Shown one piece after another: positions 3,419 through 55,534 of a stretch of 64,000 nt of DNA. The notes under the pieces were generated by a model. It did not search any database. It worked only from the letters and a program-made list of their open reading frames with translations, and had not been told where the DNA came from. How positions within the stretch are numbered: the stretch's first letter is position 1; each line of letters opens with the position of its first letter. Source of the DNA: Patescibacteria group bacterium (GTDB taxonomy: Bacteria; Patescibacteriota; Patescibacteriia; JAQUQO01). Location: contig JAQUQO010000001.1 of assembly GCA_028716045.1 (NCBI GenBank), forward strand, positions 384,942 through 448,941, written 5' to 3'. Position numbers and translations under genes: made by a program.

Positions 3419-3874
3419 TTAATCAATTTTTTTTGTCAACACCTCAAATTTACCCCCTCTTTTAACACCCTCCTCCCCTGCCAATCCTCCCCTAATCTCC
3501 AAAACATAATCAACCGGCTGGGGTGGATAATATAGGGCCGTTTCGTCAAGATGGCTAACATTATGTTCAATACCTATAATTTCACCACCAGCAATCCAGA
3601 TTATATCAATATCAAACTTCATGCCCTTCATCCAAAATGGCAATGTGGAGCCATTTTTAAAAATAAACAACATGCCCTCGCCCTCCCCTATTTCTTCGCG
3701 TCCGGAAAGTCCCCTGGATATTTCGGCAGTGGAATCCGCTAACTCCGCTTCAATAACTAATTTGCCTTGGTCTAAAGAAATCCGCGCTTTGGCCGTTGAT
3801 GTTGCCCATAAAACAATAACTATCGCCCCAAAACATAAAAATAAAATAGCCACCAAAATTATCACTTTTTTCAT
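3419..3874 (-). CDS. DUF192 (COG1430) family protein with N-terminal membrane anchor
   Basis: MLFIFKNGSTLPFWMKGMKFDIDIIWI matches the DUF192 signature. Confidence 0.6.
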   Translation of the reverse strand: MKKVIILVAILFLCFGAIVIVLWATSTAKARISLDQGKLVIEAELADSTAEISRGLSGREEIGEGEGMLFIFKNGSTLPFWMKGMKFDIDIIWIAGGEIIGIEHNVSHLDETALYYPPQPVDYVLEIRGGLAGEEGVKRGGKFEVLTKKID

Positions 3875-4974
3875 AGACCCGCGCTTGATTTTGATTTTCT
3901 AACCGCTAAAATCGCCAAAACCAACATCACTAAAACTAAAATTGCCAAAGCCCAAAGCTTGCTCCGGCTCTGCAAGAACAGGGCGCCGGCGCCGAAAGAA
4001 ACTGATAAAAAATATAAAAATAAAACCGCGCCGCGATGTGAGAACCCCAAATTTAGCAGACGAAAATGTAGATGCTTAGCATCTCCCCGAAACGGCGATT
4101 TTTTTTCCACAAAAATCCTTCTTAAAATCACCCACAGCACATCCAAAACCGGAATGCCGACGACAAGAAGCGTGGTGGCGACTTTACTGCCGGAAATAAT
4201 ACCAAGAGCGCCAAGCATAAAACCGCAAAATAGACTTCCGCCCTCGCCCAAAAATATTTTAGCGGGATGCCAATTAAAAATTAAAAAACCCGCGCAGACG
4301 GCGGCTAAAATCAAAGCCAACGCCGCCACCTCCGGCTGGTACCACCGAGTCAGCAAACTCAAACCGGCGATAATCAAAGCGCCAATAATGGTAATGCCGG
4401 AAACCAATCCGTCCAATCCGTCCAAAAATTTTGTGGTATACATCATCCCCATCAGCCATAAAAAAGTGAAAACATCAGCCAATAAAGTAAATTTATACGC
4501 TATTCCATTGTGCCAAAATAAAATCCATTCATAGGTAGTAAAATCCAAAAGTCCGCCAAAGGGATTATTGATATAATGTATGCCAATACCCGAAACAATC
4601 ACAATAATTACCGCGGCCATCGGAAAAATAATCTGAAACTTCGGCGCTAAATTATATTTGTCATCTAAAAAACCGCCAATCATTAAAACAAGCCCGCCAA
4701 AAAATAAACCGGCTAAATTTTTGACTACTAACTGCTTATCCAAAATCATTTCCGGGTTTATAAAATAAATCACCGCCAAAACAATAAAAAAAGACAAAAA
4801 AAGAGCCAGACCGCCAAAAAGCGGGGTCGGCTCCTGATGGATTTTCCTACCGCCGGTGGGCTGGTCAAGAACATTAAAACGCAAAGCCAGACGGCGGATA
4901 AAAAAAGTAAGAACAATACTTATGACAAAAGAAAAAACCGTTAACCACAACATAAGGAGCATTATTTTTCGCAA
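3871..4974 (-). CDS. Polyprenyl-phosphate sugar-1-phosphate transferase, MraY/WecA family (glycosyltransferase family 4)
   Basis: Multi-TM protein with the GFLDDKYNLAPKFQ motif typical of MraY/WecA. Its start overlaps the downstream gene stop by 4 bp. Confidence 0.65.
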   Translation of the reverse strand: MRKIMLLMLWLTVFSFVISIVLTFFIRRLALRFNVLDQPTGGRKIHQEPTPLFGGLALFLSFFIVLAVIYFINPEMILDKQLVVKNLAGLFFGGLVLMIGGFLDDKYNLAPKFQIIFPMAAVIIVIVSGIGIHYINNPFGGLLDFTTYEWILFWHNGIAYKFTLLADVFTFLWLMGMMYTTKFLDGLDGLVSGITIIGALIIAGLSLLTRWYQPEVAALALILAAVCAGFLIFNWHPAKIFLGEGGSLFCGFMLGALGIISGSKVATTLLVVGIPVLDVLWVILRRIFVEKKSPFRGDAKHLHFRLLNLGFSHRGAVLFLYFLSVSFGAGALFLQSRSKLWALAILVLVMLVLAILAVRKSKSSAGL

Positions 4975-6071
4975 GTTGGATTAAGAAAACCTGAACACTC
5001 GTATCCAGCCGGGCATTGATAGTCCTCGGCGCAAGAATCCCCGGGTGATAATTTAGAATAACATTTGTTTATTGTATATCCTAAAAGAGTGTCAAGATTG
5101 CACCACTGCCCGGTTCCGCAATCATTTTGGCTGGAACAGCCCTCCCCTTGTTTTCTGCAATTATACCCCGCCCCCTCCTGCCGGCAAGTAAACCCCGGCG
5201 CGCATTTTTGGGAATTATTGCATGGAGCGCCGTCCATGCCATTTGAGCAAAGCCCACTCTCGCAAATTTTGCTTTCGCACTCCGAAGCATTGGAACAATC
5301 ACTACCCGCCGACCGGCCAGTAGAACCCTCACAAGAACCTATCCCCTTTTTAGGGTTAGCTTCCTCGTCACATTTAAATCCTTTCTGACAGTCGGCGTCG
5401 GTTAGGCAGGAAGACCCCTTGTCCCCGCCGCTGCAAAGGCCAGTGCCTCCCCCGCCGGCATTTTCAATACATTTTTGTCCTCGGGGGCAAGAATCCGAAA
5501 TTTTAAGGTCACATGTTTGCTCCGCTTTGGACGGGCAAACTATTTCCGTTTCTCCTGACAAACATTCATTCACTCTCGCGACATAGTCATTTCTATCTCC
5601 GCTAGCATTAACACCGGAGACGGGTTTACAGCAAATAGTTTTGGCTTTTTCTACTTCTGTAATCGTTCTGATTTCCGGCACTTTCAATTTTGTCAGATTG
5701 GGATTCACTGTATTTAAAATAAACCATGAGCCAAATACTAAAAATAGTCCTATCAACGCGCTGGCTATGTATTCTTTGGCATTCTTCACTCTATCCGGAC
5801 TGCCGCCGGCCGTCAGCCAAATCACTCCGCCGACGACTATCATCACAACTGCCACGATGCCGACTATGGAAAGGGCGTAATTATAAATAACGTTGATGTA
5901 ATCGGCAATATCAATTGACGCAATCATCGTGTCTTCATCATAACTCATCCCGGGAATGGGCACGGAAATTTTAACCTGCGGTTTCTCCGCGGCCAAAACA
6001 AAACCCGTGAGCAAAATTTGAAGTGCGAAAATAATGACGATGATAGATAAAATTCTTTTAGAAAAAAGCAT
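4962..6071 (-). CDS. Membrane-anchored surface protein: VirB2/TrbC-pilin-like double-TM N-terminal core fused to a long Cys-rich (EGF/Dickkopf-like) extracellular domain
   Basis: N-terminal TM segment, then the second hydrophobic segment IVGIVAVVMIVVGGVIWLTAGGSPDRVKNAKEYIASALIGLFLVFGSWFILNTV typical of TrbC/VirB2 pilins. This is followed by roughly 230 aa containing more than 40 Cys in repeated CxxGxxC modules. Confidence 0.55.
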   Translation of the reverse strand: MLFSKRILSIIVIIFALQILLTGFVLAAEKPQVKISVPIPGMSYDEDTMIASIDIADYINVIYNYALSIVGIVAVVMIVVGGVIWLTAGGSPDRVKNAKEYIASALIGLFLVFGSWFILNTVNPNLTKLKVPEIRTITEVEKAKTICCKPVSGVNASGDRNDYVARVNECLSGETEIVCPSKAEQTCDLKISDSCPRGQKCIENAGGGGTGLCSGGDKGSSCLTDADCQKGFKCDEEANPKKGIGSCEGSTGRSAGSDCSNASECESKICESGLCSNGMDGAPCNNSQKCAPGFTCRQEGAGYNCRKQGEGCSSQNDCGTGQWCNLDTLLGYTINKCYSKLSPGDSCAEDYQCPAGYECSGFLNPTCEK

Positions 6072-6148
6072 AGGGCTAAATTATAGATAAACTACTGCTT
6101 ACCGAATTTTGGCGTTAAAAAAGAATCCTTACTTTCTGTTTTTATTTA

Positions 6149-6310
6149 TTGTCATTCCGAGCGGAACGAATGAGCGATAGCGAATGAGTGCAGTCGAGGA
6201 ATCCCTTATACGCGGTTAAACGGATTGAACAAAATTTTAGCTTCTCCGAAGTTTAAGCGATTTCCTTCGGCAAGCTCAGGAGAGGCCCTCCACTTCGGTC
6301 GGAATGACAA
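6149..6310. repeat. Family-1 palindromic MITE-like element, long variant
   Basis: Outer inverted repeat ttgtcattccgagcgg...ccacttcggtcggaatgacaa with an internal structured insert. Confidence 0.65.
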
Positions 6311-6390
6311 AATATAAACAATACTCACAATTCTTACACTTTATTTTAGCATATTTTAGGGAAAATAAAAAACCGCGTTGCGTTGGCAAT

Positions 6391-6573
6391 TTGTCTTTGC
6401 GAGGCGTCCCGAGAATTCGGGACGACGAAGCAATCTGATCCGAGTGGTTATTCTGAATAAAGCAAAATCTACGGTTGTCGTCCTCGGCCTGCTAAACGTG
6501 GTCAAAATGGCACTAATCTCGCACCAGATTACTTCGCTCATCCCGCCGTGGCGGGATTCGCTCGCAAAGACAA
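6391..6573. repeat. Family-2 mosaic palindromic element (outer inverted repeat TTGTCTTTGCGAGG...CTCGCAAAGACAA with shared internal hairpin modules)
   Basis: Internal modules are cgtcccgag-N-ctcgggacg, gaagcaatctga...cagattacttc and tcccgccgtggcggga. The same modules recur at 29609-29775, 32320-32414 and 33854-33919. Confidence 0.65.
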
Positions 6574-6667
6574 TATGATATTATCGGTATTTAGAATTTA
6601 GTTATTAAAAAACCGCCCTGATATTAAATCAAAGCGGTTTAAAATGATTTTCTTGCTAAATTTTCAA

Positions 6668-6880
6668 TCAGGACTCCTCCAAAATTTCCTCGTTTTCCTC
6701 CGCGGTGGCGTTGTATCCCTGTAAAGCATAGGGAATGAGTGTGTTACTTCTGTATAAAAGACGGACGCAAACCTGCCTAGTCCTCACTCTTTCCCTCTGC
6801 AACATTTTAGGTAATTGAAACTGCTGGTAAAGTATTAACCCCACGCCCAAAATGATTAAAAAACCACAAACGTAAAGCAT
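6668..6880 (-). CDS. Small membrane protein downstream of tgt (position consistent with a degenerate YajC, but the motif is not conserved)
   Basis: 70 aa with a single N-terminal TM. tgt-yajC synteny is common, but the YajC GDxVxTxGG motif is absent. Confidence 0.3.
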   Translation of the reverse strand: MLYVCGFLIILGVGLILYQQFQLPKMLQRERVRTRQVCVRLLYRSNTLIPYALQGYNATAEENEEILEES

Positions 6881-6903
6881 TTTTCTTCCTCCTATATCTA
6901 ATT

Positions 6904-8887: not shown

Positions 8888-9235
8888 TTATTTATAGGCA
8901 ACCGCTGTGCTCCCGGGAATAAGATAATCCACCTTGGAAACGGCCACCATATTTAATCCCTTAATTTTTTCCGCCAAATAACTATGCGATTGTAATTCCG
9001 CTATTTTTAATTCCAGATTTTTATTATCATCTTTCAGGGTTTCTATCCTTTTTTCTAAATCCTTAATTTCAAAACCTTTGGCCGCCACGCTGTTTATCTG
9101 AACTAAATATAAAAGTCCGGCTGCGACAATAAGAACCAAAATAATTACATTAAAATTAAGACCATTTATCCTTTTCCAAAAAGACCGTCGGCGCAACTCG
9201 TATTTAATTTTTTTGAGTCTTAAAAAACAGGTCAT
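8888..9235 (-). CDS. ftsL: Cell division protein FtsL / septum formation initiator-like
   Basis: Single TM plus a coiled coil (KDLEKRIETLKDDNKNLELKIAELQ). It lies immediately downstream of rsmH in the mraZ-rsmH-ftsL arrangement. Confidence 0.65.
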   Translation of the reverse strand: MTCFLRLKKIKYELRRRSFWKRINGLNFNVIILVLIVAAGLLYLVQINSVAAKGFEIKDLEKRIETLKDDNKNLELKIAELQSHSYLAEKIKGLNMVAVSKVDYLIPGSTAVAYK

Positions 9236-9250
9236 GTTTTTGTTTTATTT

Positions 9251-10189
9251 TTATATTTTTACCGCCACCCGCAGCTTGGCGCTGCGTGACGCCGGATTAA
9301 TTTTGAGCTCCCGTTCGCCCGGTTGAACGGCTTTTTTGGTTAATATTGTTAATGATGGCTTGTGGCCGCAGACACAGCGGGGAAATCTCGGCGGACAAAT
9401 ACATCCCCGCGCCGACTCTTTTAAAAAATTTTTCACTATTCTATCTTCCAGCGAATGGAAGGAAATAACCGCCACCCGTCCGCCCGGCGCTAAAAGTTCC
9501 AAAACGTCAGGCAAAACTTTTTTCAAATTATCAAGCTCGCCATTAACTTCTATCCGCAATGCCTGGAATGTTCTGGTGGCAAAATGGGTTTTATTGTGTA
9601 GATATCTGGGTGGGACCGACTGTTCTATAATTTTCACGAGCTCTGCGGTTGTGGTTATCCTTTTCTTCGCCCTTTCCCGAACTAAACTGCGGGCGATGCT
9701 TTTCGCGAACCGTTCCTCTCCATATTCGCGCAAAATCCGCGCTAATTCCTGCTCGCTGTAATTATTTACAATGTCCTCGGCCTTGAGTTCGCTTCGCTTG
9801 TCAAAACGCATGTCCAACGGACCAGCGCTTAAAAAAGAGAAGCCACGCTCCGGATCGTCGAGCTCACCTCGTGATAAGCCCAAGTCAAGTAATAAGCCGT
9901 CAAATTTAGAAAATCTGTTAGCATAAACGATATTTTTTAAGTTGGCAAAATTATCCCTGACTAAAATTATTCTGTTTTTGAATGGCTGAAGGCGGGTGGC
10001 CGCTTTTTTAAGCGCCCGCTCGTCTAAATCAATCCCGAGGAGTTTTCCCGCCGGCGAGGTTTTTTCTAAAATCGCTTCGCTGTGTCCCCCGTCGCCCAAA
10101 GTGCCGTCAATAAAATTTTCGTTCGGCTGAGGATTTAAATATCTAAGAACTTCCTCCTTGAGAACTGAATAATGAAATTGGCCTGCCAT
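9251..10189 (-). CDS. rsmH: 16S rRNA (cytosine1402-N4)-methyltransferase RsmH (MraW)
   Basis: FIDGTLGDGGHS and GGRVAVISFHSLEDRIVK motifs are present. Confidence 0.95.
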   Translation of the reverse strand: MAGQFHYSVLKEEVLRYLNPQPNENFIDGTLGDGGHSEAILEKTSPAGKLLGIDLDERALKKAATRLQPFKNRIILVRDNFANLKNIVYANRFSKFDGLLLDLGLSRGELDDPERGFSFLSAGPLDMRFDKRSELKAEDIVNNYSEQELARILREYGEERFAKSIARSLVRERAKKRITTTAELVKIIEQSVPPRYLHNKTHFATRTFQALRIEVNGELDNLKKVLPDVLELLAPGGRVAVISFHSLEDRIVKNFLKESARGCICPPRFPRCVCGHKPSLTILTKKAVQPGERELKINPASRSAKLRVAVKI

Positions 10190-10248
10190 AGTAAATTTTC
10201 GGGGAACAAATTATTTTGTATATTATCAAAACGAAAATGTGTATAGAT

Positions 10249-10284
10249 AGGAAAGAGGCAGAGTGAATCCGCCTCTTTCCTATA
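10249..10284. other. 12-bp perfect stem-loop in the mraZ-rsmH spacer
   Basis: taggaaagaggc-agagtgaatcc-gcctctttccta. It sits inside the operon between mraZ and rsmH, with no adjacent U-run. Confidence 0.4.
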
Positions 10285-10411
10285 GGACATATCTAAACTT
10301 TCCTCTTCCGCTGTCCGGTTAAATTTTTTGGTTTTTGATGATTTTGTTTTTATTTTAATCATCCAATACTTAACCGTCCAGCTTCGGGAAAAAATTTACA
10401 AATGTAAGGAG

Positions 10412-10873
10412 CTACACTTCGGCCTGGCCTAATTTTTCGGCAATCTCGCCTATGGATTTTTCGGTCTTCTCTTTATATGAATTCCATTTTCCTTCGTCCC
10501 AAATTTCCAAATGGTCATAGAGGCCGGTCACTATCACTTTTTTATTAAGCCCCGCGTATTTTCTCAAATACTCCGGCAAAACGATTCTCCCCTGCTTATC
10601 AATCTCCACGTCCATGGCTCCGGAAAGGCGGAGACGGGCGTAAGCTCTGTTATTCGCCTGATTGATAGAAAGTTTGGAAATATTTTCCGCCTCTTTTTGC
10701 CACTCCTCCAAAGTATGAATAAATAAACAATCGTCTAAACCTTTGGAAATCACCGCCCCCTTAGTTAAATCTGCCCTAAACTTGATTGGGACGGCCAAAC
10801 GGCCTTTTTCGTCTATGTTATGTGAATATTCTCCGATAAACATATTTGTTGATATTTTGATGGACTTATCCAC
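10412..10873 (-). CDS. mraZ: Transcriptional regulator MraZ
   Basis: MFIGEYSHNIDEKGRLAVPIKFR with a duplicated SpoVT/AbrB-like fold, upstream of rsmH. Confidence 0.95.
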   Translation of the reverse strand: MDKSIKISTNMFIGEYSHNIDEKGRLAVPIKFRADLTKGAVISKGLDDCLFIHTLEEWQKEAENISKLSINQANNRAYARLRLSGAMDVEIDKQGRIVLPEYLRKYAGLNKKVIVTGLYDHLEIWDEGKWNSYKEKTEKSIGEIAEKLGQAEV

Positions 10874-16873: not shown

Positions 16874-18478
16874 TTATTCTATCACTTTCCCGCCGAATTC
16901 TTCAAGTATCTCACTGACTATCCCCTCCTGCGCCGTTTTTTCATCTTCCCCCGCCCTAAACCCCACATCGGCAACTATCGGCGTGATAATAATCTCTTCA
17001 CCAAAAACTTCTTGTAAAGTTTCCTCTATAATCGTCTTAATTTTGACTTCACCGGCTTTTTCTTGATGCAGTTTGTATTGAAAGCCGATACGCAGCTTAT
17101 CTTCGTCAAAATCCAAGGGCTGGCTAAGTTTCATAATAAACGGCAGAGAATGATTCTTGGCGCTGATTTTTTCCAAAAATTCCGGCCAGCGGGATTTTAT
17201 TTCTTCCGCGGTTATTTTTATTTTTTTCTTTCTCTTCACTTCTTTTTTCGCTTCAGCTTTTCCTTCTGCCGGCTCCTGTCGCATACCCTTCTCCTCCGCT
17301 TTAACAGAAGATTGACTGGCAACCGCCACGGATTCAATCCTTCCGGAGATTACATTTTCGTTGCTATTTAGTTTTTTTTTACTCTTGCCTGCGCTAATTT
17401 CAAAAATGGCTAACTCTAAAGGCAGTTGAACGATATCCGCATTTTTCAAAAGCGGAATTTTCTCCATAAAGACATTAATCATATTCAAAAGGTCAACTAC
17501 CTCAACGTAAGCGAGCAGATGCTTTATTTCTTTTTCGGTTTTTTCTTCAAAACCCTCGGCAAATTGCGCCAAGTCATTGCTAATTTTCACCAAAAGCATC
17601 TTGCGCAAAAATTCCACCGCGTCCTTGATAAACTGATTAAAATCCACCCCTTCATTTATAAGACGATTAACAAGTTCCAGCGCCTCTTTAGTCTTATCTA
17701 GAATCAAATATCCGACCAGCTCCGCCACCAGATTAAATTCCGAACGCGGAATCACGAGTTCGGCCGCGTCCTTAGTTATCTTTTTTTCTCCCAGGGAAAA
17801 AATCTGCCCAAGCAAGCTCTCGGCGTCGCGCAAACAGCCATCGCTATGGCGGGCGATATTTTCCAAAACTGCGTCTTCAATATCAATTTTTTCTTTCTGG
17901 GAAATCATTCTTAAACGCCCGACTAACTCGGCAGCGCCGATTTTTTTAAAATCAAAACGCTGGCAACGAGAAACAATAGTCAGGGGAATTTTGTGAACTT
18001 CAGTTGTGGCTAAAATAAAGATCACTCGGGCCGGCGGTTCTTCCAAAGTTTTAAGAAGAGCGTTAAAAGATGCCGTGGAAAGCATGTGCACCTCATCAAT
18101 AATAAAAACTTTATACTTGAGGCGCGACGGCGAAACGCGGGCGTTTTGGATAACGTTTTCACGGACATTATCAACCTGCGTATGCGTGGCCGCATCCATT
18201 TCAACAATATCCAGCGCGCGACCCTCGGTAATCTCGCGGCAAGCGGCGCACTCGTTGCAGGGCTCGGACTCCCCTTCTTGACGGCGCTCGCAATTAACGG
18301 CCTTGGCAAAAATACGCGCCATGGTGGTTTTGCCCACCCCGCGCGGTCCGGTAAATAAATAAGCGTGGGTGATATCGCCCGTTTCTATTTCGTGCTGCAA
18401 AGTAATCTTAATGTGGTTTTGATTAATAACGTCGGAAAAACTCTGCGGCCTGTATTTTCGGTAAAGTGTTTGAGACAT
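16874..18478 (-). CDS. dnaX: DNA polymerase III subunit gamma/tau
   Basis: YRPQSFSDVINQNH...LFTGPRGVGKTTMARIFAKAVNC gives the Walker A and Zn module. Confidence 0.95.
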   Translation of the reverse strand: MSQTLYRKYRPQSFSDVINQNHIKITLQHEIETGDITHAYLFTGPRGVGKTTMARIFAKAVNCERRQEGESEPCNECAACREITEGRALDIVEMDAATHTQVDNVRENVIQNARVSPSRLKYKVFIIDEVHMLSTASFNALLKTLEEPPARVIFILATTEVHKIPLTIVSRCQRFDFKKIGAAELVGRLRMISQKEKIDIEDAVLENIARHSDGCLRDAESLLGQIFSLGEKKITKDAAELVIPRSEFNLVAELVGYLILDKTKEALELVNRLINEGVDFNQFIKDAVEFLRKMLLVKISNDLAQFAEGFEEKTEKEIKHLLAYVEVVDLLNMINVFMEKIPLLKNADIVQLPLELAIFEISAGKSKKKLNSNENVISGRIESVAVASQSSVKAEEKGMRQEPAEGKAEAKKEVKRKKKIKITAEEIKSRWPEFLEKISAKNHSLPFIMKLSQPLDFDEDKLRIGFQYKLHQEKAGEVKIKTIIEETLQEVFGEEIIITPIVADVGFRAGEDEKTAQEGIVSEILEEFGGKVIE

Positions 18479-18632: not shown

Positions 18633-19244
18633 TTATTTCTTTATCACATTCTCCACCGCCGCCCAGGCGCTGCTCTTGTCTTTGGGAACAAGAATCACCA
18701 CATCATCTCCTTTTTCACCCTTAAAATACGACACGCTGGCTTTAAGAAGTTTGTATTTTCTATCTTCCACAATGGCAGAAAATTCTCCGGTATCGTCGTT
18801 CTCGAAAAGTTGACCCACCAGCCGTTCCCTTTCCACCGGACCGATTTGTTTATAGATGAAGGTGCCGCGCGCGGTGATGGTGAGTTTTAAAATATCTCCT
18901 TCAACTAATTTTGATTTGGAAGCATAATTCGCCGGCACGCTATATTGCTTGCCGTCGGGACCTATCATGTTCTGACCGTCAAAAACCCCCTCTACCGTCA
19001 TCCCCGTTTCTTTTTCCGCTGGCTTAATCAGGGTTTCGCCGCGGGTATCCAAACTCATCGGCAAATCCCCGCCCTTTTCTTCTAATAAGTCCAAAATCTG
19101 GCAAACAGAGCTTTTAATGTTTTCCAGCCGGCTTTTTATTTTAATCACTTCCGCGCTCGTCAAGGCCTCTTTTTCTTTGTTTTTATTTTCCTCTTCCTCG
19201 GCTTCCGTGTCACCAAGGTCTTCTTCTATAATTTTGCTTTTCAT
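18633..19244 (-). CDS. Hypothetical acidic protein
   Basis: 203 aa with a Glu-rich N-terminus. Terminator at 18574-18599. Confidence 0.4.
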   Translation of the reverse strand: MKSKIIEEDLGDTEAEEEENKNKEKEALTSAEVIKIKSRLENIKSSVCQILDLLEEKGGDLPMSLDTRGETLIKPAEKETGMTVEGVFDGQNMIGPDGKQYSVPANYASKSKLVEGDILKLTITARGTFIYKQIGPVERERLVGQLFENDDTGEFSAIVEDRKYKLLKASVSYFKGEKGDDVVILVPKDKSSAWAAVENVIKK

Positions 19245-21843: not shown

Positions 21844-22341
21844 TTATTTTCTTTGGCTTAAATCTAAAATTTTGTCGGCCTTGATTTTAGCCTCCTGTTC
21901 CAGAAAAAATTGATTGACTCCCGGAATAATCTTCAGCCATTTTTTTATAAGATTCAAAATTTTATGCGCATTAATTCTGACTGCTTTAATCATTTTTTCT
22001 ATCCTGCTAGCCGTCTCCTCCCCGCGCTCTTTAAACTGTTTTCGCTTTTCCGGGGGCAAGCTAAAATAAACCTCGTCCAAATCCTCGGAGAGTATGTTTT
22101 CTATTTCCAAAAACGTCGGACTTTTGTAAGGAGTCGTCGGAGTTACCGGCGCACCACTCGGAATTTCCACTTTTCCCTCTCTTTTCTCGCCCTCCTCTTC
22201 CTTTTCTTGCGGTAAAAATTCTGGGGCTTTCTCGGGCGCGTTTTCTTTGACAACTTCTTTTTTGGGAAACTCCTCGGATTTTATTTCTTTTGAAAAATTC
22301 GCTTCTCCGGTTTCTATTTTTTTACTGTCATCTTCTGGCAT
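21844..22341 (-). CDS. Hypothetical Glu/Lys-rich protein
   Basis: 165 aa and low complexity. It abuts the ATPase gene. Confidence 0.35.
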   Translation of the reverse strand: MPEDDSKKIETGEANFSKEIKSEEFPKKEVVKENAPEKAPEFLPQEKEEEGEKREGKVEIPSGAPVTPTTPYKSPTFLEIENILSEDLDEVYFSLPPEKRKQFKERGEETASRIEKMIKAVRINAHKILNLIKKWLKIIPGVNQFFLEQEAKIKADKILDLSQRK

Positions 22342-22430: not shown

Positions 22431-23816
22431 TTATTCTAATCTTTTCACCTTTGTCCCCTGCTCCGTATCTTCCACCTCAAACCCCAATTTTTGTATTTCC
22501 TCGCGCCAGCGGTCGGATTCCGCCCAATCTTTACTTTGACGGGCTTTATCGCGTTTTTCTATTAATTCTTTGACTCTTGATGGTATTTTAATTTTTTCTT
22601 TCCTGACATCATCCAAGTTCAATCCTAATACTTCGTCAAACTTCAAGAGTGTTTTCTTTTTAGCGCGCCGGGAAATCTTTTCATCTTTCAAAAGTTCCCA
22701 CGCCACCGCCAAGGCCTGCGGGATATTTAGGTCGTCGTTAATCGCTTCACAAAATTGGCGCTCATAGTTCTCGTCCACCTTGCCAAACCAAAATCTGCCA
22801 AGCTCCGCTATTTTTTTATACAAATTATCCAGCGCGTTTTTGGCTCCCGCCAGCGACTCCCAACTAAATTCTACTGGATTATGATAATGAGTGTTTAAAA
22901 GCAGGTAACGATAAGCCAAGGCGTTAAAACCTTTTTTTTGAAGCGCGCCTAAAGTTAAAAAATTTTCCGCGGACTTAGCCATCTTTTCTCCGCCCTTTAA
23001 AATTACAAACTCATTATGTATCCAAAATTTAACCACCTCTTTGCCGGTCGCCGCCATATTCTGCGCCCGCTCATTGGTATGATGAACGGGAATGTGGTCA
23101 CGGCCGCCGGTATGAATATCAATGGCCTCGCCCAGATATTCCATAGACATAGCCGAGCATTCAATATGCCAGCCGGGAAACCCAACCCCCCAAGGGCTTT
23201 CCCATTCTTGCTGGCGCTTCTTGCCCGCTGGAGAAAATTTCCACAAAGCAAAATCGGTGGTATTTTTTTTATCGCAAAATTCTACCCTCTCCCCCGCCCG
23301 CAATCCTTCAACGTCTAACCCGGCCAGCCGCCCGTAGTCCTTAATTTTAGAAGTGTCAAAATAAATTCCATCTTTAGTGCGATAAGTATAGCCCTTGCTT
23401 TCCAATTTTTTTATCAGCTTGATTTGCTCTTCTAGGTGGTCTGTGGCTCGGCAAAAAATATCGGGAAAATTGATATTAAGATTTTTTAAATCCTTTAAAA
23501 ATGCCTCAGAGTAAAAACGAGCTATCTCTTGAGGCGATTTTCCTTCCCGCTCCGCGCCTTTCTCCAACTTATCTTCGCCTTCATCGGCGTCGGAAGTGAG
23601 ATGCCCGACATCGGTGATATTCATCACTTGTTTGACTTTATAGCCGTTGTATTTCAAAACGCGCACCAAAACATCGGCAAAAACGTAAGAACGCAAATTG
23701 CCGACGTGAGCGTAATTATAAACAGTCGGGCCACAGGTATAAATCCCGACTTTATTGTCATTTAGCGGCTTAAATTTTTCCTTACTGCGGGTTAAAGTAT
23801 TATAAAGATTCAGCAT
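22431..23816 (-). CDS. cysS: Cysteine--tRNA ligase
   Basis: [21 protein letters not shown] (HIGH region), KMAKSAENF (KMSKS) and a Zn-binding Cys are present. Confidence 0.95.
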
Positions 23817-24994: not shown

Positions 24995-26137
24995 CTATAA
25001 AGCGCAACAATACATCTTTAATACCGCGTTGTTAGCGTCTTTCTCAATACCGGCAACGTATTTATTTTCAGGACAAGTAAACTGCCCGACGCCGAACTGA
25101 ATGGGTGTCCAGGCACAGTTATCGCGAGTATTGCTCGAAGCACTTAAATTACCTTGAGTTGTTAAATCTCCACCCGCATTGATAGAACCGCTATTTGTAG
25201 TTATAGAACCAAATGTGCTGTTGATATTACCTTTTACGTAAACAGAAGCGGCATTGGGTTCAGCGTTTGGATCTATATAATAAGTACTGTCTGTGTCTAA
25301 AATAAAGGGTAATTTTATCCTGCCCGCCAAATTACCGGCATCACTGCTATTGGCCGGGTCTAAATAATAACTGGAATTGTCTTTATCTTGAAATTGTGTG
25401 CCATAAATAAGACCAGTAGACGTCAATTTATTTAGAGTCACCTCACCATTTATTATGTAATCGGCAGTAACCGAATCATCAGCTCTTTTTAAATAATAAC
25501 CATTGGCGCAATTAGTAATGTCTGAACAGGCTGTCTGACAAGATAAATCCTCGCACTGGATTGTGCTGATATCCGCCCAGTCCTCAATACAACCACGACC
25601 GTCGGATAAATCCGTATCCCAAGCATTAAGGCAAAGATAATCATCAACTCTCACTGCGTCACGGCCGCTATAATCGCGTAATTCCAGTTCTCCGCCAGCG
25701 CCATAATTGCTCTGAAGCGCGATTGAACCAACCCCGGAATAGATATTTACCCCGCTCTGACCTTTCACGGTGGCATAACTATTCCTGCTATATAAACTCG
25801 CGCTCCCCGTGGTCTCAAGATTAAGCGTGGAATTATCGCCAGTTCTCCATTCGCCGGCGACATTATCATACCCTGCCCTGATATACATCGGCGAGCTGAC
25901 GCCAAGCCACTTGTTGGCTATTTCGTTTATTTGGAGACCGCCCAAAATTAAATTTCCGGTTTTAGTTTGGATATCACTGCCGGCATTAAGCGGCGCGGCA
26001 ACGTTGTTCCCCGCCGGAGGGGCAGTCGGGCCCTGCCAGGCATAAAGATAATTTACCGAAAGAGCGCCGGCGACAAAAAGAAAAATAAACACCGCCACAA
26101 AAATTGACAGTTTGGTTAATTTAGTTAGTTTGGACAT
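24995..26137 (-). CDS. Secreted/membrane-anchored beta-rich protein with Cys-containing C-terminal region
   Basis: N-terminal TM anchor, Gly/Ser/Asn/Thr-rich region, and Cys pairs near the C-terminus. Confidence 0.45.
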   Translation of the reverse strand: MSKLTKLTKLSIFVAVFIFLFVAGALSVNYLYAWQGPTAPPAGNNVAAPLNAGSDIQTKTGNLILGGLQINEIANKWLGVSSPMYIRAGYDNVAGEWRTGDNSTLNLETTGSASLYSRNSYATVKGQSGVNIYSGVGSIALQSNYGAGGELELRDYSGRDAVRVDDYLCLNAWDTDLSDGRGCIEDWADISTIQCEDLSCQTACSDITNCANGYYLKRADDSVTADYIINGEVTLNKLTSTGLIYGTQFQDKDNSSYYLDPANSSDAGNLAGRIKLPFILDTDSTYYIDPNAEPNAASVYVKGNINSTFGSITTNSGSINAGGDLTTQGNLSASSNTRDNCAWTPIQFGVGQFTCPENKYVAGIEKDANNAVLKMYCCAL

Positions 26138-26155
26138 ACGATTTTATAATTATAT

Positions 26156-26716
26156 TTAATAAACTCTGATTTCTTTGGCGATAAAGGACTCGGACCAATA
26201 AATATCAGCTTCCGAGGAAACAGTAATCTTGTCTCCGACATTCAGGGATTCCAACGGATACACCATTTCCGTGAAAGTTTTCTGTCGGAGCGGCGTCTCG
26301 GTCCCGGCTTGCCGCGCGGCTTCCCTATTTTTTTCGTAAGCCAACTCTTCCGCGGCTAATTGGTCAGCCGACTTCTCAATGACTTTTATAATTGAATAAT
26401 TTTTATCAAGCGACGCCACTCTCTCAACCGGCGCCCGCGGAGCCAGTGGATTTTGACTGGGCTGTTCGGCGTTAAAGTATATTTTTTTATTAGCAACATC
26501 AATCTTGGTTATCTCGCCTTTTAAATTGAAAGCTGCTTCTTCTCCATCAGGAAAAACCCCGGTTTCATCAATCGCCTGTCCGGCCAAAGACCAGGCCTTA
26601 TCTGCTCCCGCCTGATAGCCGAAATAAAAACCCGTGTAGACAAACCCGAGAATGATGGTAACCCCGACCAAAATAGCAAGTAAAATTTTTAGCCCGAAAA
26701 GAATATGCTTTTGCAT
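26156..26716 (-). CDS. Membrane-anchored hypothetical protein
   Basis: 186 aa with an N-terminal TM. Confidence 0.4.
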   Translation of the reverse strand: MQKHILFGLKILLAILVGVTIILGFVYTGFYFGYQAGADKAWSLAGQAIDETGVFPDGEEAAFNLKGEITKIDVANKKIYFNAEQPSQNPLAPRAPVERVASLDKNYSIIKVIEKSADQLAAEELAYEKNREAARQAGTETPLRQKTFTEMVYPLESLNVGDKITVSSEADIYWSESFIAKEIRVY

Positions 26717-26794
26717 AGGTTTATGTTATCAATAATTTATATAATTATAGCACATGGAATGTAAAACTTATAATTTCTGGCTTGAAACCGCCAC

Positions 26795-27334
26795 CTATTC
26801 CCCTTCTTCCTCTTTGTCTCTAGCGAGAACAATGGCCACAATCGGCGCTACCAACCAAAAAAACCTCCCGGCGTCTCCCGTAAACACATCCTTGGTTAAA
26901 GGCGCTAGTTTGCTGACCGCCTCGGGAGCTAAATAGGACAAGACCACGCTGATTAAAAGGCCGACGTGTAAAAAGGAGAAGAGAATCACTTGCCACCATT
27001 TGCCCAGGCCGCGGGATTTGGCGATTGTTCCCATCAGCCCGCTGCGAGACAAGAGAAAAAAGAGAACCAAAAAAACACCTAAAAAGGTGGTTATTTTAAA
27101 AACAAAAAAATTGTTGATATTTATCTCCGCTTGAAGCCCCTTAATATAGGGGGCGGTATTAACGACCGCCAAAGCCATGTAAATACTTACTAAAATCACG
27201 ATTATCCTGTCGCGGCCCAAAGAAAGCCCGTAAAGCAGGGAAACCACTATAAAGAACACAAAAATAAGGAGGTCCCAACTTGGGTTTGACCAATTGACCG
27301 AACTTATCCACTTAACGATTGGCTCAAAATTCAT
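26795..27334 (-). CDS. Polytopic membrane protein
   Basis: 179 aa with 5-6 TM segments. Confidence 0.45.
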   Translation of the reverse strand: MNFEPIVKWISSVNWSNPSWDLLIFVFFIVVSLLYGLSLGRDRIIVILVSIYMALAVVNTAPYIKGLQAEININNFFVFKITTFLGVFLVLFFLLSRSGLMGTIAKSRGLGKWWQVILFSFLHVGLLISVVLSYLAPEAVSKLAPLTKDVFTGDAGRFFWLVAPIVAIVLARDKEEEGE

Positions 27335-27475
27335 CTGTTGATAATTTATGCTTACTGTATTTAGTATAGCAAAAAAAATAAAACAATAAAAGACACAACT
27401 ATTAGCTGTGTCTTACTAAAAAACTAAAACCATTACCAAAAAACCGTTTATCCCCCCATACTTTAAACATCCCTT

Positions 27476-27808
27476 TTACATGCAACCCTTTGACAATACA
27501 GATAAAACAATAATAATTACCCCGATTTGAACATAAAGTGGCTGGTCGGATAGGTCGACTTTAGGTGAAGAAGCAATTTTCACAATGGTTGCTATTACAA
27601 GAACGGCAATAGGAAGGCCAAAAATACAACCCATAATTTCTCTGCCTGACCAGTTTTTTTCTTTTTTTTCCTCTACGCGTTTGGCAGCTAAATTTCCCAT
27701 AGGCGGGCTATCCCATCTTGGCTCTTTATTTAACCCTTGACCTTCGGCGGGTTTAAAAGGGTCGGGTGGCGGTTTAATGTTAGAATCTTTTGGACCAAAA
27801 TTACCCAT
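27476..27808 (-). CDS. Small double-TM membrane protein
   Basis: 110 aa with a Pro-rich N-terminus and two hydrophobic segments. Confidence 0.35.
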   Translation of the reverse strand: MGNFGPKDSNIKPPPDPFKPAEGQGLNKEPRWDSPPMGNLAAKRVEEKKEKNWSGREIMGCIFGLPIAVLVIATIVKIASSPKVDLSDQPLYVQIGVIIIVLSVLSKGCM

Positions 27809-29523: not shown

Positions 29524-29595
29524 TTGTCATCCTGAGCGTAGCGAAGGATCTCTGTCTAGATTCTTCGCCCCGAGAACTCGGGATCAGAATGACAA
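29524..29595. repeat. Family-1 palindromic MITE-like element (short copy)
   Basis: ttgtcatcctga...gaatc-tctgtcta-gattc...cccgagaactcggg...tcagaatgacaa. Confidence 0.7.
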
Positions 29596-29608
29596 TTGAC
29601 CTTTTTTA

Positions 29609-29775
29609 CTGTCTTTGCGAGGAGTCCCGCCGTGGCGGGACGACGCCTGCCTGCCGGCAGGCAGGAAGCAATCTCTAATACAGCGCCCTTGCCCAAAGCT
29701 ACGTATTAGAGATTGCTTCCCCCTCGACGACTCGACTGAGCTCGCCGAAGTCAAGCTCGGGGTCGCAATGACAGC
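29609..29775. repeat. Family-2 mosaic palindromic element filling the dnaK-dnaJ spacer
   Basis: Modules are tgtctttgcgagg, cgtcccgcc/ggcgggacg, gcctgcc/ggcaggc, gaagcaatctctaatac/gtattagagattgcttc and gggtcgcaatgacagc. Confidence 0.65.
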
Positions 29776-32319: not shown

Positions 32320-32414
32320 CTGTCATTGCGATCCCGCCTTGGCGGGAGAAGCAATCTCTAATACGTTTAGATTGCTTCGTCGTCCCGAGCGTTCGGGACT
32401 CCTCGCAAAGACAG
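32320..32414. repeat. Family-2 mosaic palindromic element (inverted orientation) in the hsp20-grpE spacer
   Basis: gtcattgcgatccc, gccttggcggga, gaagcaatctctaatacgtttagattgcttc, gtcgtcccgagcgttcgggac and cctcgcaaagacag. Confidence 0.65.
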
Positions 32415-40725: not shown

Positions 40726-41100
40726 TCATAGGTTTTCTAAAAATTCTTCAAATTTGTCAAAAAATGTCGATTTAACTATCGCATGGCTACAGCCAGCCGA
40801 CAGAAGAAGGTTATTATAACTATCCTGGTCGGAAATGGCTACCATCGGTCCGCTGAAATCCCGCCGAAATAACTTCACGAGTTCTATGGTGTCCGGCTCG
40901 GTTCCTCCGGAAGTCAGACGACCGTCCACAAGCATAAGGTCAACATCAGGATTATCTTTGAACAACCTCTTGGCTGCGCTTTCTGAAGCGGCTTCAAGAA
41001 CTTCAACTTCAGCGCCGGCGAAAATCTTTATCACGCTCACAATACCCCTACGCGATAAAGCATTATCCTCAACCAAAAGAACCTTTTTAATCTCTTTCAT
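40726..41100 (-). CDS. Stand-alone response-regulator receiver domain (CheY-like)
   Basis: VLLVEDNALSRR...DLMLVDGRL...VAISDQ receiver motifs with phospho-accepting Asp. No output domain. Confidence 0.7.
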   Translation of the reverse strand: MKEIKKVLLVEDNALSRRGIVSVIKIFAGAEVEVLEAASESAAKRLFKDNPDVDLMLVDGRLTSGGTEPDTIELVKLFRRDFSGPMVAISDQDSYNNLLLSAGCSHAIVKSTFFDKFEEFLENL

Positions 41101-41338
41101 TTTCAATCCTCCTCTTAATTTTACAAACCTCATCCTTAGATGTTATCACATCTCCACGGATTTGTCAAGACAAGTTCAAGCGGCTGTTGCTCAGCATCAT
41201 TTTTACGACCTAAGTATATAAGTAACCAAAACGTAATTTTATCTTGCCATTCCCCCTTGACAACTTAGCTAACTTATGATAAATTACTTTATTCTGGATT
41301 GTTCTAGAATTACGCACTATTTACAATTTATTTGTTAC

Positions 41339-52207: not shown

Positions 52208-52360
52208 TAAAAATAACCGCCCCGAAACTCGGGACGGTTATTTATTTCTAAACGTTTGACACCTTTAAATAAAAATGATATCGTGTCATATTGTCCTAAT
52301 TTTTGGACAATTTTAATAATCTTTGGTCTTTTAAAAACTATAAATAAAGGAGAAACTGAA

Positions 52361-53560
52361 ATGAGAAAGTTAACTGGTTTTGAAAAGGAACGACGCCAAT
52401 GGTTAGTGAAAGAACTTCGTTATTTAGGGCTAACCACTCCGGAAATCGCCAAGGCCATCAATTTTAGCGAATCCCTGGTTCACGCCATTCTTAAAGAATG
52501 TAAAGTTAATAAAAATAAGCAAAAAAGAACCGAAACCTTCGGTTTGGCGTTTCGGCGTTATGCTGAACTAGAAACGACAGAACTGAAAACAAGGCAAGAG
52601 GAAGAACTTTGTTGTATTTTGAGAAAATGGCTGGGGATTGAGAGAAAACGCATTGTCGATTTTTTTGAAGGCGTTGTTGAAACTTTGCAAGAGCTTACCA
52701 TTCTTTTCTACCCGCCCGGATGTGAAGCGTACATCAATCTTCTCCGCGTGGTGTTCGGCGAAAAAATTTACCAAGGCATATTCTCTTCGGGAATTATGAA
52801 TGATGAAATGCTTCTTAAGTATTTGCAGGAAGAAATAGACGATGAAATTGCTAAACGGTGGGAAAAATATTTGAAAGAAGTCGCCGATGGCGCTATCCCG
52901 CCTCCCCATTCTCTCGCAGGAGCAAAAGCGCCCCTAATGAGAGAATATCTTGCTGAATATCGTTCTCAAATTATGCCCACCCTAACTGACACTTCTCTCA
53001 AATACATTGACGCCATTATCTCGAGCACTCTGACTGAACGCGAAGCGCGAATTATTCGCCTGCGGTTTGGCTTAAAAGATGGTGGCGTTCCTCACACCTT
53101 GAAAGAAATTGGACAAAAGCTTGGTGTTACTCTAGAGCGTATCCGCCAGATTGAGGGCAAAGCACTCCGAAAACTCCGCCATCCGTCAAAGGGGCTTAAA
53201 TATCTTGGACGACCGCTTCACAGCACTCTTGAAAAAGAGATTAAAGAAAAAACAAGGGAAATAGAAGCGGCGCTAAGGATCGCTGAAATGACAACCTTAT
53301 CAAAAAAATACCCCCTGTTACCAATGCTTCTAAGACCAACAGAGGAGATAAAGTTCTCAATCCGCGCCTCTAACTGTTTAAGAAATGCTGACATTAAATA
53401 TATCGGCGAACTTGTCCAAAAAACGGAAAAAGAATTGCTCAAGACCAGATACTTCGGGCGTAAATCACTCCGTGAGATAGAAGAAGTTCTAGCGGACATG
53501 GGGCTTTCTCTCGGTATGAATCTTGACGATGAACTGAAAGAAGCAATAAAACAACTCTGA
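52361..53560 (+). CDS. Chimeric transcription protein: N-terminal domain of unknown function, then sigma-70 region-4 HTH, then RNA polymerase alpha-subunit C-terminal domain (alpha-CTD)
   Basis: [15 protein letters not shown]...[31 protein letters not shown] aligns with RpoD region 4.2 at about 60% identity. [53 protein letters not shown] aligns with E. coli RpoA alpha-CTD at about 60% identity. No sigma region 2 or alpha N-terminal domain is present. Start chosen at an ATG after AAAGGAGAAA. Confidence 0.75.
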
Positions 53561-54757: not shown

Positions 54758-55534
54758 TCAAATGAAAATTTTTATCCCCACCGGGCAATGGTCGGAGCCC
54801 TTAACTTCATTTAAAATAAAAGCGTCTGCTAATTTGTTTTTTAACTTTGCTGATGCCAAAAAATAATCAATGCGCCAGCCGATATTTCTCGGTCGGGCGT
54901 TGAATTTATAACTCCACCACGAATACTGGATTTTCTTCGGATAAAAATGGCGGAAGGTATCAATAAAACCGGCGGATAAAAAATCATCCATACCGCTCCG
55001 CTCTTCGTCAGTAAAGCCAGCATTACCCCTATTGGGCTCGGGATTTTTTAAATCAATTTCTCTGTGCGCCACATTGAAATCGCCGCAAATAACCACCGGC
55101 TTTTTCTTTTCCAATCTTCGAACGTACTGTAAAACCCCTTTGTTAAAATTAATTTTATAACCAAGTCGCGACAACTCGTGAGTGGCATTGGGAAAATAAA
55201 CGTTCAAAAAATAAAATTTTTCAAATTCCAAGGTCTGCACTCTACCCTCAACGTCAAACTCCCTAACGCCAATCTTCTCAAAATAGCCAACCGGCTTTAT
55301 TCCTTTTTTTAATAAAACCGCCGTGCCGCTGTATCCCGGACGGACCGCCGGATTCCAATACTCGTCATAATCCCGAAAGTCAAATTTTTCCTTGAGTCGG
55401 GCCTCGTTGGTTATTTTTATTTCCTGAATTCCTAAAATATCCGGCTGGTATTTATCTAAAAAATCAACAAAACCATTCCGCACCGCCGCGCGGATACCGT
55501 TGACGTTCCAAGACATTAGTAAGAGATTTCCCAT
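54758..55534 (-). CDS. xth: Exodeoxyribonuclease III (AP endonuclease)
   Basis: MSWNVNGIRA, QEIK, and the C-terminal SDHCPV. Confidence 0.9.
   Translation of the reverse strand: MGNLLLMSWNVNGIRAAVRNGFVDFLDKYQPDILGIQEIKITNEARLKEKFDFRDYDEYWNPAVRPGYSGTAVLLKKGIKPVGYFEKIGVREFDVEGRVQTLEFEKFYFLNVYFPNATHELSRLGYKINFNKGVLQYVRRLEKKKPVVICGDFNVAHREIDLKNPEPNRGNAGFTDEERSGMDDFLSAGFIDTFRHFYPKKIQYSWWSYKFNARPRNIGWRIDYFLASAKLKNKLADAFILNEVKGSDHCPVGIKIFI

Follow-up and report, generated by a model that had tools for sequence, protein, structure and literature searches.

A T4SS_pilin-family protein with a cysteine-rich C-terminal region and its long relatives in Patescibacteria

The locus described here raises the question of whether a pilin-like protein of a Patescibacteria group bacterium carries a large cysteine-rich domain, and what such a protein might do. 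The gene lies in a 64-kb stretch of contig JAQUQO010000001.1, the whole of which is called the window below. It runs on the minus strand from the ATG at 6071 to the stop codon at 4962-4964, and its product has 369 amino acids (aa), so that the open reading frame (ORF) placed at 4962-6071 by an earlier reading of the letters (the sequence-only reading) has exactly these coordinates. The protein is identical to PHD51_01075, an NCBI "hypothetical protein" from a Patescibacteria metagenome-assembled genome (MAG; GCA_028711565.1, contig JAQTRY010000001.1), which bears out the earlier assignment to a bacterium of the candidate phyla radiation (CPR). A spurious ORF was rejected, because four contigs encode the identical protein, their sources being one NCBI genome assembly and two independent sequencing-run assemblies, and because the cysteine pattern of the protein is conserved. 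We found that the protein consists of an N-terminal hairpin of PF18895, a pilin family of type IV secretion systems (T4SS), and a C-terminal cysteine-rich ectodomain. Its parts are given below, where TM1 and TM2 are the transmembrane helices of the hairpin and pLDDT is the predicted local distance difference test score of AlphaFold.

4962-6071, minus strand: whole gene, encoding a 369-aa long pilin with a Cys-rich ectodomain (ORF list, translation)
5988-6071, minus strand: Sec-type signal peptide, aa 1-28 (hydropathy; small-x-small motif at the same site in homologues)
5904-5987, minus strand: short acidic N-terminal segment, aa 29-56, with a conserved KP...VPIPG motif (P31 and P40 invariant in 14 homologues)
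5709-5903, minus strand: T4SS_pilin domain (PF18895), aa 57-121 (Pfam, AlphaFold, conservation)
5634-5708, minus strand: linker after TM2, aa 122-146, NPNLTKLKVPEIRTITEVEKAKTI (pLDDT below 50; its NPxL..L part conserved in the family)
5427-5633, minus strand: 8-Cys head, aa 147-215 (C147, C148, C170, C179, C187, C195, C201 and C213; sites conserved in the relatives P0015, P0021, P0024 and P0025)
4965-5426, minus strand: tandem array of five 4-Cys modules with the pattern G-x-x-C-x5-C-x(4-5)-C-x(4-12)-C, aa 216-369 (module parsing, invariant Cys)

The pilin hairpin

Hydropathy analysis showed three hydrophobic segments in the protein, at aa 1-28, 58-92 and 100-123. The first is the signal peptide, with K5 and R6 in the n-region, the h-region at 7-25 and L-A-A at 26-28, and cleavage is predicted before E29. 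The other two form the hairpin, which scored 48.6 bits on PF18895 in Pfam, where the gathering score is 26.6 (E 8.5e-13, covering positions 7-70 of the 71 in the profile), and is composed of TM1 at about aa 59-87, the loop TAGGSPDRVKNAKE, TM2 at about aa 100-122 and an NPxL motif at the end. G89 and G90 in the loop were invariant or nearly so in 14 homologues. AlphaFold2 with a 14-sequence alignment gave helices at 53-87 and 92-122, with block-mean pLDDT values of 77-91 over aa 61-120, and a poor model outside the hairpin (mean pLDDT 58 at full length). The T4SS pilin module at the N-terminus and the layout of two hydrophobic segments around a GG loop, both claimed earlier from the letters, were thus recovered by profile, hydropathy and model. 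With the full-length model, Foldseek found no match below E 0.78, and the hairpin resembled only generic helical hairpins such as ATP-synthase subunit c.

The loop holds three K/R in 13 residues, and the segment preceding TM1 is acidic. According to the positive-inside rule, the loop would be cytoplasmic and both ends of the hairpin would lie outside the cell, where the segment of aa 29-56 is also predicted to be. Across 18 proteins the hairpin is 32-69% identical and keeps a GG..WLTAGG loop motif, while the ectodomains of most homologues are not alignable with one another, suggesting that the hairpin may do more than anchor the protein.

The sequence-only reading had called this core VirB2/TrbC-pilin-like. 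Its pilin character was upheld by PF18895, but the family name was not: in Pfam, the query had no match to PF04956 (TrbC/VirB2) at E<=10, whereas two genuine VirB2/TrbC proteins, taken from plasmid records and verified at 100% identity, scored 65-68 bits on PF04956 and had no match to PF18895. Comparison of an 18-sequence hairpin profile with VirB2 by hhalign gave a probability of 1%, the VirB2 profile being shallow (2 sequences), and a deeper one might still detect a link. The profile of 18 pilin domains searched against PDB sequences returned no VirB2, TraA or other pilin, only chance transmembrane matches (FXYD proteins, E>=0.29). The protein is therefore a PF18895 member, with homology to TrbC/VirB2 not demonstrable from the present comparisons. 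In the literature, PF18895 is treated as "VirB2-like" from layout, structure prediction and gene context (PMC12102498, PMC10633639).

The query shares with the TrbC/VirB2/TraA pilins of diderm T4SSs (PF04956) a leader, two hydrophobic helices and a short basic loop, but it has no detectable sequence or profile similarity to them, and the cell envelope differs. To our knowledge, no large ectodomain occurs in the TrbC/VirB2/TraA family. In the structures of the F- and T-pilus, both pilin termini are located on the outer face of the fibre, so a C-terminal fusion would point outwards. A further comparison, likewise from a monoderm, is the Mbov_0395 family pilin-like conjugal transfer protein of Mycoplasma integrative and conjugative elements (NF045849), which gave a weak match over the full hairpin (aa 54-122 against positions 8-76 of 80, E 3.3e-4); the query is not a member, since it scored 20.3 bits against an NCBIfam cut-off of 40, and unlike it these proteins have about 80 aa and no ectodomain.

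The cysteine-rich domain and the long-pilin class

All 28 cysteines of the protein lie within aa 147-367, C-terminal of the hairpin, and not the more than 40 that had been estimated. The C-terminal region of about 225 aa is composed of the 8-Cys head and the five 4-Cys modules, which are contiguous with no obvious spacers; the CxxGxxC motifs noticed earlier are there, five in number. In an alignment of the query with P0015, P0021, P0024 and P0025, 18 cysteines were invariant; this part is a genuine conserved Cys-rich domain, in which up to 14 disulfides might form. When the ectodomain by itself, or a profile of five ectodomain sequences, was used in word-indexed searches, only the query and P0024 were returned, and an exhaustive HMMER search with the ectodomain against 1.84 billion representative proteins gave 12 matches. 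The two-part architecture of the query recurs in P0015, P0021, P0024 and P0025, which came from the ectodomain search, and in P0002, which came from the first search. All five have PF18895 at the N-terminus; four of them reached the gathering score, and P0021 had 26.3 against 26.6. Among the other matches of the ectodomain search are Cys-repeat proteins from bacteria that are of the Dickkopf_N, DUF7107 or EB-module type and have no pilin domain.

The modules had been called EGF-like, a name that the profiles do not support: no EGF family was in the Pfam match list at E<=10, and the six-Cys EGF pattern does not fit modules with four. What Pfam returned for the query stayed below threshold, namely Dickkopf_N (PF04706; 19.5 against 25), EB (19.7 against 24.3), DUF7107 (8 against 24.6) and Lustrin, and in NCBIfam the Myxococcales Cys-rich repeat TIGR04201 scored 15.5 against a cut-off of 25. 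An AlphaFold model of the ectodomain only (mean pLDDT 65) was compared with the PDB by Foldseek, and the best matches were the C-terminal domain of Dkk1 (3s8v_X; E 0.033, TM-score on target 0.65), Dkk4, MIT1 and the double-knot toxin (DkTx), none at E<=0.001. We found that the Cys modules weakly resemble Dickkopf or knottin modules, not EGF. Proteins with Dickkopf_N, DUF7107, EB or TIGR04201 repeats, and colipase-fold or knottin mini-domains, have tandem small modules with C-x5-C-x5-C spacing as in the query, and bacterial Dickkopf_N/DUF7107 proteins were recovered by the sequence search with its ectodomain, but the query is below all Pfam and NCBIfam cut-offs of these families and has no fold match at E<=0.001. 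The Cys-1 domain of Dkk holds 10 cysteines, compared with four in each query module. Several long pilins have an extra Ala/Gly-rich hydrophobic insert of 40-100 aa in mid-ectodomain, for example GGAVTGATLGMAGGVLGSVIGGVEGYKAGG, which is absent from the window protein (P0002, at L007 2947-4374; L054 9749-11845; L069 93-2063; L091 6068-8608).

The fusion is not confined to this gene. All 13 of the nearest hairpin homologues were long (228-619 aa), and those inspected had extra domains N- or C-terminal of the hairpin: Cys-rich regions, SLT (P0010), Peptidase_C39_2 (P0006) or Peptidase_M15_4 (locus L004), and the SLT, Peptidase_C39_2 and M15 fusions are VirB1-like activities. We scanned 185,579 species by motif, each represented by a single genome, and obtained 532 relatives, none of them a close orthologue (best identity 26-51%). 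We analysed the best 80 loci (74 non-redundant), from Falkow-, Uhr-, Buchanan- and Magasanikbacteria and Parcubacteria; they were chosen for similarity to the query, so the figures drawn from them describe its own subfamily. There were 153 complete pilin-domain ORFs, with a median of 358 aa; 128 had at least 200 aa, and 107 had at least 6 Cys C-terminal of the hairpin. The Cys count was even in 98 of these 107 Cys-rich extensions (binomial p ~5e-20), the signature of paired disulfides, and cysteine made up 12% of the C-terminal extension. Ten long relatives carry PF18895 by Pfam (8 at or above the gathering score), and their Cys-rich parts matched no Pfam family above cut-off save a borderline Dickkopf_N in L034 (25.8). 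The query, with its PF18895 hairpin, a predicted outside extension of at least 100 aa and an even number of conserved Cys, belongs to a large and widespread class of long Cys-rich pilins in Patescibacteria, in which the hairpin would be a conserved carrier and the outside domain a fast-diverging cargo, mostly Cys-rich and sometimes a cell-wall hydrolase.

A DsbA-like gene was found within 10 kb in 51 of the 74 non-redundant loci, an enrichment judged against an assumed, not measured, background of a few percent per 20 kb. It was co-directional and often 4-28 nt upstream (upstream and on the same strand in at least 35 loci), standing either adjacent at that distance or about 2 kb upstream with porG-fer4-porA between and the pilins before porB (about 26 loci). 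Taken together, Cys parity and DsbA synteny in the relatives argue strongly for disulfide bonding outside the cytoplasm. The long pilins resemble in this respect the MdbA/DsbA-dependent pilins of Gram-positive bacteria such as Actinomyces oris FimA, surface-fibre subunits that need an extracytoplasmic thiol-disulfide oxidoreductase for folding; those are sortase-linked or type IV pilins (T4P) and not T4SS-type hairpins, and the query window has no DsbA gene. An MdbA-like oxidoreductase enriched in CPR was proposed to fold pilins, T4P pilins being meant (bioRxiv 10.1101/335083). One relative that shares the Cys-rich domain of the query, P0024, is located inside a T4SS cluster in the order PrgI, TraC-like, VirB4, four unknown genes, P0024, one unknown gene, DsbA and a pilin-Peptidase_M15_4 fusion; its ectodomain aligns best with the query among the relatives with an examinable locus.

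Several features of these loci were observed besides. The POR operon porG-fer4-porA-[pilin(s)]-porB of the roughly 26 loci holds one or two Cys-rich pilin genes, which stand downstream of the DsbA gene and a divergent Exo_endo_phos gene (L005, L006, L008, L014, L015, L023, L026, L029-L031, L035, L037-L040, L048, L049, L058, L065, L070 and L080 are of this type). The Exo_endo_phos orthologue of the window, at 54758-55534, has no adjoining DsbA or POR gene. In L008, two bAvd-like genes (PF22296/PF05635; 7094-7462 and 13676-14035) flank a long-pilin pair, and no reverse transcriptase was seen in that locus, though bAvd proteins accompany diversity-generating retroelements.

Explanations for the long pilin

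The explanation that we put first, with belief and doubt in equal measure, is that the protein displays a disulfide-stabilised ectodomain by way of its pilin module, which enters a T4SS or pilus pathway. The protein would be exported by Sec and the PF18895 hairpin would stay in the membrane with its basic loop in the cytoplasm, so that the C-terminal end of the hairpin would carry about 225 aa of small disulfide-knotted modules outside the cell. Guided by the hairpin, the protein would then enter the pathway that assembles the Patescibacterial T4SS or pilus and become one of its subunits, probably a minor one, with the ectodomain attached. The knotted domain, stabilised by oxidation, would project from the cell or fibre surface and might bind a partner or host-cell surface as an adhesin. 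VirB2-like pilins are essential in Candidatus Southlakia epibionticum (PMC10633639; PMC12857230).

The genomic context has to be weighed here. The neighbours of the pilin gene are housekeeping genes (tgt, a 70-aa ORF, Glycos_transf_4, DUF192, L21 and RecR). We scanned about 50 ORFs of the window with Pfam and purpose-built hidden Markov models (HMMs), and two genes are of interest.

3871-4974, minus strand: downstream Glycos_transf_4 gene (MraY/WecA family), abutting or overlapping the pilin stop codon
19281-21842, minus strand: 853-aa T4CP/VirD4-like ATPase (T4CP, type IV coupling protein), the only T4SS-related gene of the window, 13 kb from the pilin gene (Pfam)

The first is probably co-transcribed with the pilin gene, because it abuts or overlaps the pilin stop codon. 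The ATPase has an N-terminal membrane segment and unrelated neighbours, with no other T4SS genes around, and orphan T4CP homologues are reported to be ubiquitous in Patescibacteria, mostly far from virB4 and non-essential in Ca. Southlakia epibionticum (PMC12102498). Two acidic Lys/Glu-rich proteins without a Pfam match flank it (18633-19244 and 21844-22341).

Several results weigh against incorporation into a T4SS or pilus. No VirB4, PrgI or TraC-like gene (Pfam; iterated VirB4 HMM), no VirB6-type gene and no short pilin gene was found in the 64-kb window, nor a DsbA gene (DsbA HMM); among related loci, VirB4 stood within 10 kb in only 4 of 74 (iterated VirB4 HMM), so the co-occurrence with VirB4 that the sequence-only reading proposed as a check is poor. 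The models of the ectodomain are of low confidence (mean pLDDT 58 and 65), and no PF18895 member is known to form a pilus (PMC12857230). By geometric reasoning, a VirB2-type fibre would become crowded if each of its subunits bore a domain of 25 kDa. The window also held no POR gene (phmmer with POR proteins) and no second pilin or pilin paralogue (family HMM).

The main rival, a reading that we regard as possible, if rather doubtful, is a surface protein independent of the T4SS. The pilin fold would then be co-opted as a two-helix membrane anchor that never polymerises, and the ectodomain, oxidised by DsbA/MdbA, would stay on the membrane or wall as an adhesin, receptor or coat protein. The usual distance from VirB4 agrees with this, and so do the steric cost of such a domain on each fibre subunit, the tight linkage to DsbA and housekeeping genes (POR operons in relatives, tgt and the mraY-like gene here) and the atypical nature of large ectodomains among polymerising VirB2-type pilins. 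However, a mere anchor fits poorly with the strong conservation of the hairpin, including its loop motif, and with the position of P0024 and a hydrolase-fused paralogue within a T4SS cluster; moreover, T4SS genes can be dispersed in Patescibacteria (PMC12102498).

We consider it quite improbable that the protein is a tethered pro-form, from which knottin- or Dickkopf-like peptides would be cleaved to act on the host as toxins, inhibitors or ligands. The weak fold matches to MIT1, the double-knot toxin and Dkk1/4 and the sub-threshold Dickkopf_N and EB scores point in this direction, but all of these fold matches have E>=0.03 on a model of mean pLDDT 65, no processing sites or protease partners were found, and the contiguous modules leave no obvious spacers. 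It is harder still to credit a metal-binding or redox cluster (metallothionein-like, Fe-S or Zn) in place of disulfides: the high Cys content of the C-terminal extension and the recurring CxxGxxC spacing would suit it, but the predicted location is extracellular, Cys counts are mostly even, DsbA is linked in most loci, and the sequence lacks the His or Cys-pair motifs by which Zn or Fe-S sites are typically marked. One more candidate, the classical TrbC/VirB2 major pilin that a chromosomally integrated conjugative element would encode, would have the same layout of signal peptide and two hydrophobic helices but can be dismissed as far as sequence and context tests reach, given the missing PF04956 match, the profile-profile and PDB results, neighbours such as tgt, the mraY-like gene, DUF192 and L21, and no relaxase, integrase or other mobile-element gene identified among the window ORFs scanned.

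Surrounding DNA and biological meaning

The start of the pilin gene and the DNA upstream of it hold the following features.

6080-6085, minus strand: TATAAT -10 box, 8 nt before the ATG (sequence inspection)
6141-6318, strand not assigned: palindromic element 1, with termini TTGTCATTCCGA... and ...TCGGAATGACAA (inverted-repeat pairing, fold, copies in the window)
6391-6573, strand not assigned: palindromic element 2, with termini TTGTCTTTGCGAG and CTCGCAAAGACAA (related copies at 29610-29775, 32321-32413 and 33854)
6610-6640, minus strand: terminator-like hairpin with a U-run (fold; unlisted by a consensus terminator scan)

The -10 box described earlier is a perfect TATAAT, with no Shine-Dalgarno motif between it and the ATG and no -35 element, and a sigma-70 consensus scan missed it because of the latter. 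A start further upstream is excluded, because there is an in-frame TAA inside the TATAAT box. This arrangement is compatible with a leaderless or near-leaderless pilin mRNA, as had been suggested. It is not peculiar to the pilin gene: of the 56 gene starts in the window (for example those of 16874-18478, 22431-23816, 24995-26137, 40726-41133 and 54758-55534), a Shine-Dalgarno-like motif precedes only about 13, and many have TANNNT 6-11 nt upstream. In this genome, mRNAs with no leader or a very short one may be usual.

The roughly 830 bp of non-coding DNA said to follow the gene does exist, at 6072-6903, but with the gene on the minus strand its place is upstream. About 230 bp of it probably belongs to a 70-aa gene that has a Shine-Dalgarno motif (6668-6880), which leaves about 600 bp truly intergenic. 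The stretch is repeat-filled only in the sense that it has two palindromic elements of about 180 nt from a dispersed family. It folds far better than shuffled sequence (z = -5.6), and Rfam gave no credible match in this region. The hairpin at 6610-6640 would end the upstream unit of tgt and the 70-aa ORF. Elements of the palindromic family, 75-185 nt long, are dispersed at 665-761, 6141-6318, 6391-6573, 29525-29597, 29610-29775, 32321-32413 and 33854 to about 33915, with termini TTGTCATTC(C/T)GA... or TTGTCTTTGCGAG...CTCGCAAAGACAA and the internal mini-hairpins GTCCCGAGAATTCGGGAC, CCCGCCGTGGCGGG and GAAGCAATC; they look like miniature inverted-repeat transposable elements (MITE) or repetitive extragenic palindromic (REP) elements, with no Rfam match.

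The dcw (cell-division and cell-wall) cluster is split in the window: the MraY-family gene stands at 3871-4974, apart from mraZ, rsmH and a DivIC/FtsL-like gene at 8888-10873. The pilin gene, which may be an insertion into the cluster, is located between the two parts together with a CDP-OH_P_transf gene, tgt, the 70-aa ORF and the palindromic elements. Elsewhere, the gene at 52256-53560 (plus strand) encodes a 434-aa protein with the unusual pairing of Sigma70_r4 (aa 258-309) and an RNA-polymerase alpha C-terminal domain (aa 357-413). The gene at 24995-26137 (minus strand), with a perfect TATAAT 11 nt before its ATG, encodes 380 aa that include an N-terminal hydrophobic segment, match no Pfam family and end in ...MYCCAL, and three membrane or unknown genes come next (26156-27808).

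PF18895 pilins, their arrays and their essentiality are already known. Ca. Southlakia epibionticum ML1 has an essential six-gene pilin array in its T4SS locus (PMC10633639; PMC12857230; PMC12102498). The query belongs to the same Pfam family as these Patescibacterial VirB2-like pilins and, like them, has a signal peptide and a helical hairpin in a monoderm CPR host. However, the pilins described so far are regarded as small proteins encoded in tandem arrays, for the most part close to virB4 (PMC12102498), whereas the query has 369 aa with a 225-aa Cys-rich ectodomain and is encoded singly amid housekeeping genes in a 64-kb window that lacks virB4. The loci L087-L089 contain arrays of up to 12 short pilins, each of 110-170 aa. 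Our literature search, which had incomplete coverage, found no description of long Cys-rich or hydrolase-fused PF18895 forms or of a linkage to DsbA, and no paper that mentions Patescibacteria together with the terms disulfide, pilin and type IV secretion.

In surveys, the Patescibacterial T4SS was without an adhesin and mostly without VirB1 (PMC10633639, PMC12102498), and pilin fusions to Cys-rich and cell-wall-hydrolase domains could supply these functions. In a bolder form of the display model, which we think unlikely, the VirB2-like hairpin would serve Patescibacteria as a general module of display and assembly. The long pilins, by themselves or together with short ones, would build a T4SS-dependent bottle-brush fibre on the monoderm cell by polymerisation, from which fast-evolving, DsbA-oxidised knotted ectodomains and, in paralogues, hydrolase domains would project to supply the missing adhesin and VirB1-like functions and set the host specificity of the episymbiosis. 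The T4SS and VirB2-like pilins are essential in one genetically tractable Patescibacterium (PMC10633639, PMC12102498). The query and several hundred relatives show that the pilin hairpin is very often only the N-terminal quarter of a much larger protein, and annotation as "pilin" or "hypothetical protein" hides about three quarters of it. The long pilins are thus concrete candidates for the host-contact surface of episymbionts, with the testable prediction that the cell or fibre surface carries an ectodomain that is anchored by the pilin part and depends on DsbA.

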